From a virus (Duplodnaviria > Caudoviricetes): a DNA stretch of 56,529 nucleotides. Position 1 is the first letter of the stretch; the number at the start of each line of letters is the position of its first letter. The stretch is taken from the IMG/VR virus record IMGVR_UViG_3300032291_001333, positions 1 to 56,529 of that record; one strand, 5' to 3'. The notes under the pieces were generated by a model. It made no database searches and was not told the origin of the DNA. It saw only the letters and a program-made list of their open reading frames with translations. Positions 32,906 through 39,973 of this stretch are shown here, piece by piece. The position numbers and the translations under genes were made by a program.

Positions 32906-33223
32906 TTAGAGCTTCTTGGTATCCACAACAAGTAACTCCCGCTCAATCAGTTCTCGCATAGTGCTTCGATGAGCCATGTCCCAGACGATCCGCTTCTCCT
33001 CGCGGGTCATGCTCTTGCCGTAGTCGATCTGGTAGTGGCAGGCGCAGCATAGAGCGGCCAGCATTGAATCGGAAGTCTTGTGCCCTATGCCCCTGCCATC
33101 CGATAGCTGGTTGCTGTGGGAAGCCTGCGTAGAGCCTTCCAGACCGCAGTTCTGGCAGGGAAGGCTTGCCACCGCTCGGCGCAGTTTCTCGTTGCGATAG
33201 GGCTTTTCTTTAGGGATTAGCAT
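32906..33223 (-). CDS. HNH-like Zn-binding protein (DUF968/DUF1364-like)
   Basis: LPCQNCG...QASHSN...G.G.K.SD...LCCACH...D; likely ATG at 33223. Confidence 0.75.
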   Translation of the reverse strand: MLIPKEKPYRNEKLRRAVASLPCQNCGLEGSTQASHSNQLSDGRGIGHKTSDSMLAALCCACHYQIDYGKSMTREEKRIVWDMAHRSTMRELIERELLVVDTKKL

Positions 33224-34079
33224 GATTGCTATAAACCATTCCGTAATTGTTAATGCCAGCAGGCACATGCGCCTCAGGTTTTCTGATCAATTCATTTTTG
33301 AAAACCTTGTAATTCACATGATGATGCCAACGATTAAATCGCCAAACCACGCGAGCTACATCAGGATGCAAATCAGCAAGCATTTTGCTTTTTGGCATTG
33401 TTCCTTCTGCAGAATAAAAGTCTTTAGTGTTACCACCAGACATTCTTTGCGTAGTAACTTTGCCGCACAAAAACGCATTGAATTGAACAGTTACCAATCC
33501 ATCCTTTAATACACGCAAAGAAAGATCAGTATCCTCGTTATATCTGCCTCGCCATCTGTAAGGAATATCATTTCTAATCAATAAACATGAATATATGCGG
33601 GTGTTTAGAATGAATGCTGGCAATGCATCGGTTGATTTTGCAAACGAATAATAATTTGGACCTGCTATTGCTACGTTTTCATACCGCTCAACAAAATCTT
33701 CCATTGCACGAAGCGTAGCGCCAGTTCGAACTTCGTCTTTGGTGTTTTTGTATAATCGGTGAAACGCATCGAGGTTGTCGTCCATTACCCAATGCCATTT
33801 AGCGCCAGATGCGACTGCGTGATCCCAGCAGAAATTCCTTGCTGCGCCGGGACCCACACTTTTTGTTCTGCCAAGATCATCGCAAGTATCGTATTGATTC
33901 AAGTATTCTTCAGGCAAAACCATGATCTTATTCCGGCGAATTACTGAGGCATATTGCTCAAGCTCATGGCCCTCAACAACAATGAAGAAAGGAACTCCCA
34001 TCGCATCAAGCGCCTTTGCGGTAAGCCTGCTCTCCCACCGACCTTTTGAGACTATGTAAACAGGATGTTTAGGATTCAT
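33210..34079 (-). CDS. TET-associated/GREB1-like glycosyltransferase (TAGT), putative DNA-base glycosyltransferase
   Basis: PVYIVSKGR, ARNFCWD, HWVMDDN, RIYSCLLI, WRGRYNEDTDLSL, GGNT motifs; likely ATG at 34079. Confidence 0.8.
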   Translation of the reverse strand: MNPKHPVYIVSKGRWESRLTAKALDAMGVPFFIVVEGHELEQYASVIRRNKIMVLPEEYLNQYDTCDDLGRTKSVGPGAARNFCWDHAVASGAKWHWVMDDNLDAFHRLYKNTKDEVRTGATLRAMEDFVERYENVAIAGPNYYSFAKSTDALPAFILNTRIYSCLLIRNDIPYRWRGRYNEDTDLSLRVLKDGLVTVQFNAFLCGKVTTQRMSGGNTKDFYSAEGTMPKSKMLADLHPDVARVVWRFNRWHHHVNYKVFKNELIRKPEAHVPAGINNYGMVYSNHANP

Positions 34080-34293
34080 AATCAACCCACAATCCACGTT
34101 GACGCTTTTCTAACTCTGGAAACCAAATAGCTTTTGTTTTTGGCGTTAATTTTTGACCAATCAATGTTGCAAACTTTTCCAAGTCCTCTTGATTTCTGAA
34201 CCGTATATTTATTGCTGCAAACGGTTTTTTTTCATCTTGGACAAATTCAGGCATTCCTACCCACTCACCGCGCCAATCAAAATTGTTTTCCAT
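34069..34293 (-). CDS. Small protein coupled to the TAGT gene
   Basis: EWVGMPEFVQ...IRFRNQEDLEKFA.LIGQ.LT.KTK.IWFP; overlaps the TAGT start. Confidence 0.75.
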   Translation of the reverse strand: MENNFDWRGEWVGMPEFVQDEKKPFAAINIRFRNQEDLEKFATLIGQKLTPKTKAIWFPELEKRQRGLWVDYES

Positions 34294-34298
34294 GATTT

Positions 34299-34631
34299 TT
34301 ATTTAAGCATCTTATCGACGTTGCGGTTCGTCGCCTCTTGGCTGCGCCAGATTTCGATACGAGCCTGCGCGGCAATCATGTCCCATCGAAGCTTCTCTTC
34401 AATCTCGACAGCCTCTCGGATGCCTTTGAGCAGGTCCTGATACTCAGGGTGCGCGTATGCCCAATGCTCGCGCTCGGCTATGGTCTTTTCCGGAGACTCA
34501 CGGAACAGGATCGCCTTCTTCGACTTGCGAAACTCTTCCAGATAAATTCGTTCTGCTCGCGCCTTTGCATACTTCGGTGCGTTCTTCAGGATGTAATTCA
34601 CTGCGTCATTCGGATCAATATCAAAACTCAT
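34299..34631 (-). CDS. Conserved helical phage protein
   Basis: Likely ATG at 34631; YLEEFRKSKKA...EREH.AYAHPEY...IEIWRS motif. Confidence 0.75.
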   Translation of the reverse strand: MSFDIDPNDAVNYILKNAPKYAKARAERIYLEEFRKSKKAILFRESPEKTIAEREHWAYAHPEYQDLLKGIREAVEIEEKLRWDMIAAQARIEIWRSQEATNRNVDKMLK

Positions 34632-34942
34632 TTCATCACCTCTCTCAGTAGTTGTATTGCATTTCCACTCTTGACCATCTTCCCGGTAAACCGGAACACC
34701 GTCCAACCTATCGCTGCAGCTTCATTGTATTTCTCACAATCCGCCTCAAATCCGCTTCCTCTCGTATGCCTCCCTCCGCTCCATGTCCCACCTTCAATCT
34801 CGACCGCAATCGACTGATCCAGCCATGCAAAGTCAAATCGCCACTTTCTCACCGGATGGAAGCGATGCTCAGTCACGTAGCCTCCGATCCCAACCATCTT
34901 CAACTGAGACTCAAACAGGACTTCTAGCTGACTACGCTCCAC
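34628..34942 (-). CDS. PD-(D/E)XK / Vsr-like (DUF559-type) endonuclease
   Basis: EHRFHPVRKWRFDFAW...IAVEIEGG...GRH...DCEKYNEA..IGW.V.RFT; likely GTG start at 34942. Confidence 0.85.
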   Translation of the reverse strand: MERSQLEVLFESQLKMVGIGGYVTEHRFHPVRKWRFDFAWLDQSIAVEIEGGTWSGGRHTRGSGFEADCEKYNEAAAIGWTVFRFTGKMVKSGNAIQLLREVMK

Positions 34943-35136
34943 ATGCCGCGCTGCCCCTTGTTTCCCGCCGTCCACTGCTGGCGGATGTCTCGCTCCAGAT
35001 TCTGCCTTCGCGGCTGGTGTAGCTTTACTAGATAGCCTTGCAGCCACACCTTCCCATCCGGTCCGCGTCGAATTCTTTCTGCGATTAGGTGTCTTACTTC
35101 GCATCGGTGTCTGTATTCTTCTGATTGATTATCCAT
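34924..35136 (-). CDS. Hypothetical protein
   Basis: SEEYRHRCEVR...QW..GN.G..G.W motif. Confidence 0.7.
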   Translation of the reverse strand: MDNQSEEYRHRCEVRHLIAERIRRGPDGKVWLQGYLVKLHQPRRQNLERDIRQQWTAGNKGQRGMWSVVS

Positions 35137-35148
35137 CTCGTCACCTTA

Positions 35149-35355
35149 TCAGGTATTCGCTGTTGCGTATACCACTATTTGCTTTGCGTAGTTTATTTCG
35201 CACATTGCGCAGACTCGACGGCCATCGTGGTTGTCGTGCAAAACTTTCTTGCCAACTTTAAAACCGCCAGTGCTAAACATCTTGCAGGCAGTGTCATTGC
35301 CTATCCAGATGTGCGCCGCAGTATTCTTACGCTTCTGATTAAATAGATATTTCAT
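35149..35355 (-). CDS. Small Cys/His zinc-binding protein
   Basis: AHIW...DTAC...VCAMC. Confidence 0.7.
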   Translation of the reverse strand: MKYLFNQKRKNTAAHIWIGNDTACKMFSTGGFKVGKKVLHDNHDGRRVCAMCEINYAKQIVVYATANT

Positions 35356-35398
35356 GAGGGTTTCCTATACCAACCGAGGGAGTAAGGGAGCAGAGGAG

Positions 35399-35750
35399 CC
35401 AAAACATCCCCAACCCATAATTAAATGAGTTAGGGAGTCTTGGCGTCACCAACGTCGGTCGTTCGGTCGCTGTTGTCGCCAGAAGAGAGAGCATCATCTC
35501 TTCATAAATCGGGGATTTTGACGTTGATGCGTCAAGTCTGTCTGCCCCCGATTGACTGTCAGTTTTATCCTGTGATGTTATCTAGGGAACCTTCAGCCAA
35601 CTTCCGCAGATTGCCGTTCAGCAGCCTTCTTGTCGGCACGACCAATACGAGTAAGAACGTAACGGGGATGCGATCCGGACAGTTTGCACTGGAGCCATCT
35701 TCTCTACCTCCCCTACACCGATAAAACCTCGTATCGGCCCGTTCAAAAGA
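35399..35750 (-). ncRNA. Candidate structured non-coding RNA region
   Basis: No long credible ORF; several stems (35399-35443 with G-U pairs on the minus strand; 35507-35553 enclosing 35518-35535; 35718-35737). Confidence 0.4.
35618..35698 (-). CDS. Possible 26-aa peptide
   Basis: GGAGGT RBS, then MAPVQTVRIASPLRSYSYWSCRQEGC*. Confidence 0.35.
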   Translation of the reverse strand: MAPVQTVRIASPLRSYSYWSCRQEGC

Positions 35751-35900
35751 AAAAATCATACGGCTTGGGTTTCAGGTCGCGGTGATGATGGGCGCAAGCA
35801 ATACGAGCAGTCGCTCATCAAGACCGAAACCCAATGCGTATGATTTCGTCGTATTGCTTTACGCTCCACCGCTGAAGCGACCCGTCTTTTTCACAGGCAG
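35745..35900 (-). ncRNA. C4/CI-like antisense-attenuator RNA
   Basis: Long stem 35753-35846 followed by a U-tract; loop 35796-35806 and bulge 35779-35784 are complementary to upstream 35849-35859 and 35867-35872. Confidence 0.6.
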
Positions 35901-35904
35901 GTGA

Positions 35905-35933
35905 ATCTTAAATCGTGCATCACCCAATGTCAA
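35905..35933 (-). promoter_or_regulatory. sigma70 promoter (TTGACA-N17-TAAGAT)
   Basis: -35 at 35933-35928, -10 at 35910-35905, directly upstream of the structured RNA. Confidence 0.7.
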
Positions 35934-35979
35934 GCAGTATCGGGCAATAACTACCAACCACTTATGACCAAAAACGAAA

Positions 35980-36828
35980 TCATTTCGTATTTGACATCAA
36001 CTCTCGCAGCAACTTGACCGCCGCCCAAAGCCCTTCCCGCTGGTAATAGTCGTTGAAATCGTCGCCCTCGACCGGAGACATCAACCAAGGCAGTCCCGTC
36101 GATCTGGCGGCGTTCTGGCCCGTCCTTGAGGCATCATTGTCGGCCACCACAACCCGATCACCACCGATCCGCTCGGCCACGTAGACCAGATTGGATGCCG
36201 AAAAGCATACCCACACCTCGCAGGACTTGTGCATGGCGTCGGCAGCAGCCTTGATGGACAGCGCCGTCGCGTAGCCTTCGCAGAGGATTTTGACTGCCGG
36301 ATACCGCTTCTTCCCCATGATAAACACCGCGCCCTTCGTTTCGCCTCCGGCCAGAAACTTCTTCTCCCCATGACCGTTGATCCGCTGGATGCTGGTCAGC
36401 TTGTTGGTCTTGAAATTCCTCATCGGGACGATCAACTCGTTCTCCAATACCATCGCAATCGCGTCAGGAAAGCCTTTGCGCTCAAGATAGGGGTGATTTG
36501 AGGGCTTGGCCCTACCGACCGCGCTCTGAGCGATTATGGAGGCCCTGTGACGCCTTCCGGCCTCTTCCCTGTCGGCCTTCTCCCGCTCCATCCGCAGCTT
36601 CAGGGGATCGACAATTTCAATCCGCTCTCCCTTCGGAGGCCATGTCGCGTAGCCTTCCATCGTCGCCCAATTCCGGACGACTCCCTTGCTGCCGTCGAAC
36701 AGGTAGGCCCCGTTGCGCTTGCGAGGCTTGTCCGTGGTCGGCACCCGGTGCCACCTTCCATCTGAAATCAGGTGATTGATGCTCAGCCCGTAGGCTGATG
36801 CATGTTGTAAAAAGTCCATGTCAGCCAT
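35980..36828 (-). CDS. Toprim-domain DNA primase
   Basis: DGRWHRV, HPYLERKG, SIQRI...GEKKFL.GG, CEGYATALS, ADND, DFND motifs. Confidence 0.9.
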   Translation of the reverse strand: MADMDFLQHASAYGLSINHLISDGRWHRVPTTDKPRKRNGAYLFDGSKGVVRNWATMEGYATWPPKGERIEIVDPLKLRMEREKADREEAGRRHRASIIAQSAVGRAKPSNHPYLERKGFPDAIAMVLENELIVPMRNFKTNKLTSIQRINGHGEKKFLAGGETKGAVFIMGKKRYPAVKILCEGYATALSIKAAADAMHKSCEVWVCFSASNLVYVAERIGGDRVVVADNDASRTGQNAARSTGLPWLMSPVEGDDFNDYYQREGLWAAVKLLRELMSNTK

Positions 36829-38359
36829 CCGCCAGTTTAGTGAATTTCTGCTTAGCTACCCGGTGCCGGTAAGCAATCAACATGCGTCGGACATTATTCC
36901 GGACGACCTCACGCGGCACAACATTCGTGTCGATGTGATACGCGGACCTAGGCCAAGTCCCGTAGACGTTCCGATACTGAGCCAAGGCAAACTTCTCAGC
37001 GCCGAAACGGTCAGCCCCTTTGATGTCTGCAGCGATGTGGCAAATTTCCTTCCAGACCAGCTTCTTGTCCTTCTGCCAGTCGTTCTTTGCCTTCATCCAC
37101 ATGTCGAGTTCGGACAGTTGACCGGCCCGCTCCTCGACCGTGCTGCGACGGACAGGACGCTCAGCGCCGCATGCAGGGCAAATCTTCTGCGTATGAATAA
37201 ACCCGCAGGAGTGACACTTGCTGTCCTTCTTCTCTTCGGGAGTCTTTTCCTTGCGCAGCTTTGCATCCAAGGCACCTGAGTCAAGTTCGGCAATACCGTT
37301 CTCAAATACAGTCTGCGTGTCATCCATAAACCGCAGCATGTTGCCCGCGTGATCCAGCCACAGAGCGAATTCCTTGCCGGGGTGCGAACGCATCACACGG
37401 CCTAGCTGCTGGATGTGACCCGACAGAGACTTGCGATACGGACGCGCACCGATGCCAATCTTGATGTCCGTGACGTCAAAGCCCTTCGCCAGAGCCTCGC
37501 AGGAAATCAGCCCGACAATCTCGGAATCAGCCTTGCGAAACTCTTCGATCAGTTCACGGCGGCGATCATTATTCCCATCCTTGTAGCTAATCTGCTGGAA
37601 GTTAAAGCCTCGCGCCTGAAACTGACGGCAAAGCTCCTCACCGTGAGCGACGGTCGCAGAGAATGCAATGGTCTTCGCCGGTCCACCGAAATACTGCGAC
37701 GACTTCTGCATCCACTCTTCTACAACGTCACCGACGATCTGGATGCCGCGCTTCTCCATCTCAGCGTCCTTCCACTCGCCGTCGAACTTCACTTCAGCGC
37801 CGGTCATGTCAATCTCTTTTGCCGCATAGGCTTTCAACGGCACCAGCCAGCCCTGCTCGATCAGGCGATTGGTCGTCGTGCTGTTGACGACATTGGTGAA
37901 TATTTTGTCCATGCCCTTCGTGAATGGAGTCGCCGTCAGCCCGATGACGCGGATGTCAGTTCCCTCGACAAAATTCAGGACGCTCTGATACAGCGTGTGA
38001 CACTCGTCCCAAAGCACAAGCTTCGGCATGTCCTCGATCTTGCGCCGCGCCAGAGTCTGCGCAGATACAACCTGAATATGCTCCCACGGACGCGCCCGCC
38101 AGTGGTCGGCCTGCATGACGCCGTGCTGAATGCCGTAGCGGTCCAGCGTAGTCGAAGTCTGGTCAACCAGTGCCACTCGGTCGCACACAAAGAATGCGCG
38201 TGAAGATTTTTTCTGAGCTTCACCAAGCAAGTGAGACGCCGTTACCGTCTTACCGCTGCCTGTCGGAGCCACCAAAATCTGTGACTGATGACCCCCACGA
38301 AACCCTTCCCTCAAATCCTCTACGCTCTTCTCTTGATAGTCCCTCAAATCAATAATCAC
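36821..38359 (-). CDS. Superfamily 2 DEAH-box helicase with C-terminal Zn finger
   Basis: LRDYQ (Q motif), APTGSGKT, DECH, GLTATP, GFD, QQLGRVMR; CHSC...CPAC. Confidence 0.93.
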   Translation of the reverse strand: MIIDLRDYQEKSVEDLREGFRGGHQSQILVAPTGSGKTVTASHLLGEAQKKSSRAFFVCDRVALVDQTSTTLDRYGIQHGVMQADHWRARPWEHIQVVSAQTLARRKIEDMPKLVLWDECHTLYQSVLNFVEGTDIRVIGLTATPFTKGMDKIFTNVVNSTTTNRLIEQGWLVPLKAYAAKEIDMTGAEVKFDGEWKDAEMEKRGIQIVGDVVEEWMQKSSQYFGGPAKTIAFSATVAHGEELCRQFQARGFNFQQISYKDGNNDRRRELIEEFRKADSEIVGLISCEALAKGFDVTDIKIGIGARPYRKSLSGHIQQLGRVMRSHPGKEFALWLDHAGNMLRFMDDTQTVFENGIAELDSGALDAKLRKEKTPEEKKDSKCHSCGFIHTQKICPACGAERPVRRSTVEERAGQLSELDMWMKAKNDWQKDKKLVWKEICHIAADIKGADRFGAEKFALAQYRNVYGTWPRSAYHIDTNVVPREVVRNNVRRMLIAYRHRVAKQKFTKLADG

Positions 38360-39262: not shown

Positions 39263-39498
39263 TTTTCGTCTCTCAGTTCGGGCCAAATCTGCGCCCATGT
39301 TTTCGGGAATAGTTCTTTGCGGCCAATCTTGCCGCTAGTTGTTACTTCCATCGGGTAGGCCAGCAGCACCAGCTTTCCATCAGGAATCCGCTTCATCTTC
39401 CGCCAGTCGCTGACGGTAGACCACGCACAGTCGGCCAAGGTGGCAGTGTTTGCCGTCCCGCCCAAAGTGTCGATGATTTTGCTAGGGGTGATGCGCAC
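39259..39498 (-). CDS. Cro/YdaS-like HTH transcriptional regulator
   Basis: IIDTLGGTANTATLA...STVSDWR...IP...IWPEL motif; at the divergent promoter region. Confidence 0.75.
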   Translation of the reverse strand: MRITPSKIIDTLGGTANTATLADCAWSTVSDWRKMKRIPDGKLVLLAYPMEVTTSGKIGRKELFPKTWAQIWPELRDEK

Positions 39499-39524
39499 TT
39501 TTTGACTCCGGTTGTTTTAAGGTG

Positions 39525-39553
39525 TTGACATCATATCCGTGTTGGCGTATATT
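39525..39553 (+). promoter_or_regulatory. sigma70 promoter (TTGACA-N17-TATATT) for the rightward operon
   Basis: Shares GGCGTAT with the early promoters; upstream of an AGGAG RBS and the ATG at 39591. Confidence 0.75.
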
Positions 39554-39590
39554 CGCAACTGCCAATAACGGCGAGAGGAAAGGAGTAGCA

Positions 39591-39812
39591 ATGACTACGA
39601 TGTTGAACAAAGCAGTGAAGCGCAAGTCGGTCGGATCACACAGGGGCAGACGGTTTATCGTGACCCTTGAGCCGGGTGATGTGATTGGCTTTCGGGCCGA
39701 GAGGACCCGCAAGACGTTTTACACCACCCTCGCGGCCTGTTACGACATGGCGGTTCGCCAGCATGTCTTGGCAGAGAAGGCGGCAAAGAAGAAAAAGAAG
39801 GGCGGTGCATGA
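39591..39812 (+). CDS. Small basic hypothetical protein
   Basis: Likely start MTTMLNK at 39591 after AAGGAG. Confidence 0.7.
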   Translation: MTTMLNKAVKRKSVGSHRGRRFIVTLEPGDVIGFRAERTRKTFYTTLAACYDMAVRQHVLAEKAAKKKKKGGA

Positions 39813-39973
39813 TGGACGCTTGGCATCATCAACTGATGCTTGAACGTGAGCAGCAACTGCAGGAGGCGCTACTTCGCGCCGAGACGAGCCAAGCCTCGCA
39901 AGAGGATTGGGAAATTATCTACTTTGAATGTGGACTGAAAAGGAAAACTGAAAATGAGCTTAACCGTAGCTAA
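39812..39973 (+). CDS. 53-aa protein missing from the ORF track
   Basis: TGATG coupling; MDAWHHQLMLEREQQL...NRS*. Confidence 0.6.
   Translation: MDAWHHQLMLEREQQLQEALLRAETSQASQEDWEIIYFECGLKRKTENELNRS

Follow-up and report, generated by a model that had tools for sequence, protein, structure and literature searches.

Plasmid counter-transcript systems combine copy-number feedback with type specificity, and the C4 RNAs of phages P1 and P7 reportedly use two unpaired regions that match two boxes on their own transcript, with matching changes where related phages differ. C4 RNA blocks translation at a downstream ribosome site. The CI RNA of phage P4, as set out in the passages of PMC4825925 that deal with it, pairs with seqA and seqC on its own transcript, which leads to premature termination and turns the P4 replication genes off. 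In the same article, the portion on IsrK from the Salmonella prophage Gifsy-1 describes a single promoter giving a terminated short form and a read-through form, with the short form acting on the long one in trans; IsrK base-pairs further down the read-through message, which opens a ribosome site, and a stable non-coding RNA downstream is processed from the read-through transcript (PMC4825925). Antisense-induced attenuation is also employed in the replication control of plasmids pT181 and pIP501; according to the relevant section of PMC2879508, a small RNA acts on the nascent leader to induce termination, and the leader has alternative terminator and anti-terminator folds.

The window analysed here, the whole stretch of DNA under study, is a complete virus record of 56,529 bases with direct terminal repeats, in which nearly all genes lie on the minus strand. 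The locus of interest is an RNA unit placed directly behind a helicase and a primase; downstream of it, a stretch of about 390 nt with no convincing ORF ends in a second terminator-like hairpin, after which small ORFs begin. The neighbouring genes are as follows.

39298-38447, minus strand: ParB-like gene, upstream of the element
38359-36821, minus strand: helicase, upstream of the element
36828-35980, minus strand: Toprim primase, upstream, between the helicase and the element
From 35355, minus strand: small ORFs, then a DUF559-like protein, a TET-associated glycosyltransferase and an HNH endonuclease

The terminase and structural genes are found further along, past the HNH endonuclease. A preliminary description of this DNA had placed the element in a phage without a visible CI repressor or integrase, and this is borne out; none of the 41 window ORFs of at least 100 aa matched an integrase or repressor family in a PHROGs scan, and a six-frame search of the window's complete genome returned no PF00589 tyrosine integrase. 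A divergent intergenic region at 39300-39950 separates the minus-strand operon of the ParB-like protein, helicase and primase from a plus-strand operon encoding a phrog_862 protein and an exonuclease, and is likely the early control region of this phage. The TET-associated glycosyltransferase (PF20691, E = 7e-47; 33210-34097, minus strand) lies beside the HNH endonuclease (32906-33268, minus strand), a neighbourhood that suggests a modified-base DNA system. A small hairpin (ACGAAAT-G-ATTTCGT) followed by a T run overlaps the primase stop codon (35970-35988, minus strand) and is kept in a related phage fragment, L002 (3865-3890); it is likely a terminator dividing the primase from the promoter of the RNA unit.

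The unit itself is composed of a promoter, a leader with two small hairpins, and a long interrupted hairpin ending in a U tract; its parts are listed in order of transcription, apart from the arms of the long hairpin, which are given together.

35905-35933, minus strand: sigma-70-like promoter, TTGACA (35933-35928), 17 nt, TAAGAT (35910-35905)
35745-35898, minus strand: conserved RNA unit, about 150 nt long; its inferred start is the first G of hairpin 1 and its end that of the U tract
35880-35898, minus strand: leader hairpin 1 (GCCUGU/ACGGGU), with 100% of cells paired and one compensatory pair
35862-35879, minus strand: leader hairpin 2, whose loop holds box A
35872-35867, minus strand: box A, GCGGTG, in the loop of hairpin 2
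35859-35849, minus strand: box B, AAGCAATACGA, the hypervariable specificity box, in a single-stranded linker
35753-35846, minus strand: long interrupted hairpin with stems C, D, E and F, intrinsic-terminator-like with the U tract
35846-35837 and 35762-35753, minus strand: arms of the outer stem, AAATCATACG/CGTATGATTT
Inward of these, minus strand: further stem arms TTGGGTTTC/GAAACCCAA, GGTC/GACC and GATGAGCG/CGCCCATC
35806-35796, minus strand: loop box B', TCGTATTGCTT, apical loop, exact reverse complement of box B
35784-35779, minus strand: box A', CACCGC, internal-loop bulge, exact reverse complement of box A
35755-35745, minus strand: U tract, TTTTTTCTTTT, at the end of the hairpin

The promoter, the two upstream boxes, the loop and the bulge all lie where the preliminary description had put them, and the complements A/A' and B/B' stand in nested order. 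The arms of the stem were likewise as described, and ViennaRNA returns the same hairpin; the innermost stem has one A-C mismatch that had gone unmentioned. Over 111 nt the hairpin folds at -45.3 kcal/mol (z = -6.30, equalled by 0/200 shuffles), and with the leader included, where two small hairpins form ahead of it, at -61.1 kcal/mol (z = -4.86). A stable hairpin followed by a U tract is what defines an intrinsic terminator, and at least five terminal T are present in 13/13 variants of the unit (see below). In a consensus scan of both strands over 34500-37000 the promoter at 35933-35905 scores 10/12 matches and is the sole site; since one promoter-like site per 2.5 kb is not above the shuffled expectation (2.2 ± 1.4), the promoter call rests instead on conserved position. 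All 13 variants have a TTGnnn hexamer paired at 17 or 18 nt with a -10 hexamer that ends exactly 6 nt ahead of hairpin 1, while the promoter sequences differ; seven of these pairs were picked by script and six by eye from the upstream sequences. The promoter and terminator are predictions by sigma-70-type and intrinsic criteria. An RNA element with its own predicted promoter and terminator, as had been proposed, is what the variants have in common. A coding reading was rejected; the longest sense ORF in the unit is 15-46 codons, its start and frame vary among variants, and the variants differ in length by 1-3 bases.

The 13 distinct variants are the window and 12 relatives from viral and metagenome contigs, with identical copies and re-fetched contigs removed. 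Similarity to the relatives starts at the promoter or at the RNA start and ends after the U tract. In L002 the primase is 95% identical to that of the window and the element 85.6% identical, as a block from promoter to U tract; between the primase and the RNA unit L002 has an additional inserted gene of roughly 160 codons (L002:3906-4380), which is absent in the window. L002 lacks the window's TAGT gene region (about 34347-33216), and the blocks on either side of it are contiguous there. Scans of metagenomes with a conserved-core pattern found eight homologous loci among nine hits, the ninth (L024) being chance, and a second pattern found five more homologues in viral contigs; a 17-base viral scan added six matches, all chance, and a viral scan with the window's own B...B' boxes gave one unrelated AT-rich match only (L004). 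The search patterns required stems D, E and F, so the invariance of these stems is partly built in and the family may exceed the sample. B and B' were in no pattern that recovered a homologue, and their covariation is therefore not an ascertainment effect. An nhmmer profile of the 13 variants scores true homologues at 115-152 bits and chance matches at no more than 21 bits, with a single copy in the window (134 bits).

Three pattern scans of bacterial and archaeal genomes, one for each of 185,579 species, gave 15, 0 and 18 matches, of which 0/33 were true; these 33 have pattern-only likeness and are mostly GC-rich unrelated sequence. A blastn search of GenBank phages with 35400-36100 found no match, and a non-exhaustive full-text search of the literature found no published description of such an RNA. 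Analysis of the whole window with cmscan and Rfam 15 gave no match at gathering scores, and, with the limit at E = 10, just six weak matches of eukaryotic type over 35300-36100 (four microRNA precursors and two snoRNAs, best E = 0.98); the relatives likewise gave no Rfam match for the element, the lone match being a tRNA elsewhere in L031. By these searches the element, first described as C4/CI-like, is no member of the Rfam C4-type family, to which the window gave no match.

Across the 13 variants the terminator fold and the A:A' helix are 98% paired over 612 cells, with 8 pairs changed on both sides, a result reached by 0/500 column shuffles; shifting the partners by 1-3 columns lowers pairing to 35-50%. 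The A:A' helix has 5 pairs, 100% paired in the 13 sequences, with one position that is U-A in 9 and C-G in 4. G-U pairs are frequent (13/13 at two positions, 7/13 in A:A'), which marks the minus strand as the RNA strand. B and B' have a different sequence in each variant, yet own B matches own B' in 13/13; the cognate B:B' helix is 6-12 bp long (mean 9.2, against a mean of 5.0 in the 156 non-cognate combinations) and the cognate duplex energy is -11.9 kcal/mol, against -3.5 (sd 2.2) kcal/mol for the non-cognate. The cognate partner is strictly the best in 13/13 rows and 12/13 columns, which 0/100,000 permutations match. Through this covariation the complementarity exceeds chance, and the pairing of loop and target first noticed in the window is conserved in all 13 loci through complete sequence turnover.

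In the 78 pairwise comparisons the median identity of B is 50% and of B' 56%, values to be set against 50-53% for unrelated flanks and 87-92% for the remaining RNA; identity here is a full global measure, a free-end-gap version having been discarded because it gave 75-80% for unrelated flanks. L033 and L037 are 100% identical in the 45 nt that separate the boxes and throughout the tail, down to a stem variant seen in these two alone, and 94% identical over the downstream 200 nt, yet their B boxes are 50% and their B' boxes 67% identical. The same replacement pattern is found in L023/L034, L029/L039, L022/L037 and window/L002. Neutral drift of a helix cannot produce such a swap, since B and B' are replaced amid 94-100% identical sequence; to judge from these alignments, new box pairs are either selected or exchanged as patches.

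The hairpin, approximately 35 bp long, has box B 2-5 nt from its base and B' at the tip, and as long as it is intact B and B' are kept from pairing. Fold T is the long hairpin with its U tract, in which B' occupies the apical loop, A' the internal loop, and box B is single-stranded; fold A is a single long helix in which the leader segments GGUCGC, box A, GCGU and box B are paired with B', the 3' arm of F, A' and the 3' arm of E, while stems C and D contribute a local pairing between their 5' arms. Nascent transcripts were truncated at three points, past the loop, past A' and past the 3' arm of stem D, and their minimum-energy structure is fold A in 13/13 variants. At full length the energy of fold A minus that of fold T ranges from -14.8 to +9.9 kcal/mol; 9/13 variants favour fold T and 4/13 fold A, and if B or B' is made unavailable fold T becomes the minimum in 13/13. 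The leader therefore has mutually exclusive terminator and anti-terminator folds, as counter-transcript attenuators do, and on these computed energies the unit has the anatomy of a terminator/anti-terminator switch with B:B' as the predicted deciding helix.

It is proposed, with moderate confidence, that this phage RNA of about 150 nt, expressed from its own promoter, is a two-state attenuator with a type-specific address that acts in trans on nascent leaders. Since transcription reaches B' ahead of the terminator's 3' arms, fold A would form first and the default outcome would be read-through into the non-coding RNA and possibly into the genes beyond. In the window variant, where fold T is favoured over fold A by up to 9.9 kcal/mol at full length, default read-through would rest on folding kinetics. 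Short terminated or processed copies may pair through B'/A' (or B) with the matching box of a nascent same-type transcript; such pairing in trans would block fold A and force termination, giving an RNA-only negative feedback that would grow with template number and time and act only between genomes of the same B/B' type. As a terminated RNA carries both B and B', two such molecules could bind one another and leave nascent leaders untouched. The analysis shows the anatomy of the unit, its covariation, two folds that exclude each other with their energy balance, and the exchange of B/B' among nearly identical phages. We infer the action in trans, the direction of regulation and the biological role, the first from the diversification of the boxes, as B:B' pairing is also needed by a switch that acts in cis only.

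Such a cis-only leader is a possible but rather unlikely alternative. Here the two states would be set by a protein, polymerase speed, temperature or a small molecule, and B:B' would be a structural helix; two folds of nearly equal energy need no partner in trans, the invariant core (stems D, E and F, hairpins 1 and 2) could serve as a binding site, and there is no second cognate target downstream. A helix required for pairing alone should, however, change slowly and by rare double mutations, whereas both strands are replaced here in a context that is 94-100% identical; selection for new specificities would have no purpose in a device confined to cis. This diversification of B/B' is the main reason for which the trans-acting, type-specific attenuator is preferred.

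What the attenuator would control is considered from its position in the relatives. In L021, L022, L031, L033, L035, L037 and L039 the unit lies in a divergent region, as it does in L027, where blastp clustering of the upstream ORFs with those of L021 was used. A recombination operon (Erf-like protein, RecE-like exonuclease, SSB) leads away in one direction; in the other come the RNA unit, 200-650 nt of non-coding sequence and genes for winged-helix proteins, replication-initiation-type proteins or primase/helicase. Replication genes stand behind the unit in 9/12 relatives (L021, L023, L029, L031, L033, L034, L035, L037 and L039), the followers being replication-initiation or primosomal-type proteins, winged-helix proteins or primase/helicase; the context of L037 was assigned by shared ORF layout. 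In the window and L002 the unit instead follows the helicase and primase, and a position upstream of replication-initiation genes is not found. The proposed attenuator may serve to time a replication-linked unit or to hold its copy number in check, or it may act in competition among related phages that infect the same cell. A GIY-YIG-domain ORF between the non-coding RNA and the replication-initiation-type gene of L029 (L029:1077-1583, minus strand of the locus), present in that variant only, is probably a homing endonuclease.

The sequence directly behind the terminator may itself be transcribed as an RNA; in the window it is bounded as follows.

35434-35741, minus strand: non-coding stretch of about 300 nt behind the terminator, a candidate read-through or processed RNA with no convincing ORF
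35407-35436, minus strand: second terminator-like hairpin

The stretch in the window folds with z = -3.75. Contigs from three river-water RNA libraries (three studies), 90-95% alike to it, lie wholly inside 35434-35741; one of 309 nt spans exactly 35434-35741 and a second, assembled in a different study, has the same end at 35741, 4 nt beyond the U tract; neither has loose ends. These data are assembled contigs on 35300-36000 together with one DNA run, in which strand and true ends are invisible and DNA carry-over is possible; in the DNA run no contig bridged the 35434-35741 place, and taken together they hint weakly at a separate RNA downstream of the terminator. The three libraries have no contig over 35750-35898, which in assembled contigs is uninformative either way on a 150-nt RNA. 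The window's downstream domain is closed by a 12-bp helix, GGCCGAUACGAG/CUCGUAUUGGUC (35727-35738 with 35640-35651, minus strand), whose 3' strand has 9 bases in common with loop B'. As a target of B' this helix was rejected, ranking 6th of 13 and no better than chance; the common bases could be a duplication remnant.

Behind the unit each variant has 200-650 nt without an ORF; by sequence these stretches form no fewer than four or five groups unrelated to each other. The four members of one group share a multi-branch fold of about 225 nt, with 17/64 pairs changed on both sides and no Rfam match, at these places.

L029:1724-1983: multi-branch group
L031:1732-1981: multi-branch group
L035:1730-1964: multi-branch group
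L039:2071-2325: multi-branch group

In L031 and L022 a further promoter-like sequence stands ahead of the first protein gene, and the direct object of the attenuator may therefore be the non-coding RNA and not the genes. The preliminary description had the switch gate a nuclease/TAGT operon; the anatomy of an RNA switch is upheld, but about 390 nt without a convincing ORF and the second hairpin intervene before that operon. It is improbable that the unit is mainly a 5' leader or processing scaffold, whose hairpin would serve in processing or stabilising a downstream RNA that is the functional product. Non-coding sequence behind every variant, the multi-branch fold, and library contigs found only on the downstream stretch, two of them ending 4 nt past the U tract, would all suit a scaffold; the downstream RNAs, however, belong to unrelated groups while the front unit is conserved, and the pairing and diversification of B/B' would go unexplained.

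An ordinary trans-acting small RNA, with loop B' as the seed for other phage or host messages and box B as self-masking, is highly improbable, even though an exposed apical loop of 11-15 nt on a terminator hairpin is typical of regulatory RNAs; within the phage sequences compared, the sole partner that tracks B' across the 13 variants is box B of the same RNA. Within 450 nt downstream the cognate loops or linkers have no pairing advantage over the 12 non-cognate ones (ranks scattered, 1-11), the energy scans for a second target in the window and seven relatives' loci being noisy, and in the window many equally good matches elsewhere are at chance level. That the nested inverted repeats are a DNA-level element, an origin or protein-binding site beside the replication genes that adjoin them in the window (helicase and primase upstream) and in relatives, is scarcely credible, as the conserved G-U pairs would be A-C mismatches in DNA and on the other strand, and in 13/13 the unit has a promoter at a constant distance on one side and a U tract on the other.

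The proposed attenuator shares features with each of the systems described above. The C4-type arrangement, unpaired regions complementary to upstream boxes on the same transcript, is found as B:B' and A:A' in 13/13; as reportedly in P1 and P7, two unpaired regions face two such boxes and related phages differ with matching changes, whereas here the sole cognate partner is upstream, in the leader, and no Rfam family matches. The likeness to P4 CI that the preliminary description saw, an RNA pairing with boxes of its own transcript to control termination, does exist at the level of logic; as far as the P4 passages of PMC4825925 go, both systems have an untranslated leader giving a short RNA complementary to an upstream box on the same transcript (here box B upstream of B'), and pairing decides termination and replication genes are controlled in P4, as is proposed here. 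Unlike P4 CI, there is no second downstream target of the seqC kind, and the boxes form an anti-terminator in cis. In addition, no PF00589 integrase was found in two complete carriers (the window and G001) or in four partial ones, and representative bacterial genomes hold no copy of the unit. IsrK, in the portion of PMC4825925 devoted to it, resembles the proposed attenuator in its choice between stopping and read-through from one promoter and in the non-coding RNA downstream; it differs in that no cognate downstream site was found here and the proposed effect is on termination. Alternative terminator and anti-terminator folds are also found in the leaders of pT181, pIP501 and pAMbeta1, which precede replication functions (PMC2879508), as the unit does in 9/12 relatives; in these plasmids, however, the regulator comes from the opposite strand and complementarity is obtained for free, whereas here both boxes are on the same strand and paired changes are needed. 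The consensus scan over 34500-37000, a simple one that weak promoters could escape, found no opposite-strand promoter. The present RNA thus has the logic of known systems and differs in family, target and strand arrangement, and in belonging to phages that show no PF00589 integrase; the earlier interpretation is partly supported, being right in spirit and wrong in family and target.

A wider possibility, offered tentatively and considered unlikely, is that virulent freshwater phages carry an RNA-only self/non-self system in which same-strand boxes sense genome copy number or hit co-infecting relatives, gating an origin-associated non-coding RNA and replication. If true, this would place ColE1-like incompatibility logic in lytic dsDNA phages, with diversity kept by selection for new pairs; to our knowledge, RNA-based 'immunity' has so far been no theme in virulent phages. 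The unit would be an unlisted RNA family in which termination is controlled purely via RNA-RNA recognition, in phages that appear virulent, and it marks further unlisted structured RNAs beside phage replication genes. The 13 natural box pairs are apparently orthogonal switch addresses, and the question of trans versus cis action is open to swaps between them; if the trans-acting attenuator is the true reading, competition between related phages or the sensing of copy number would be decided by a dozen RNA bases.
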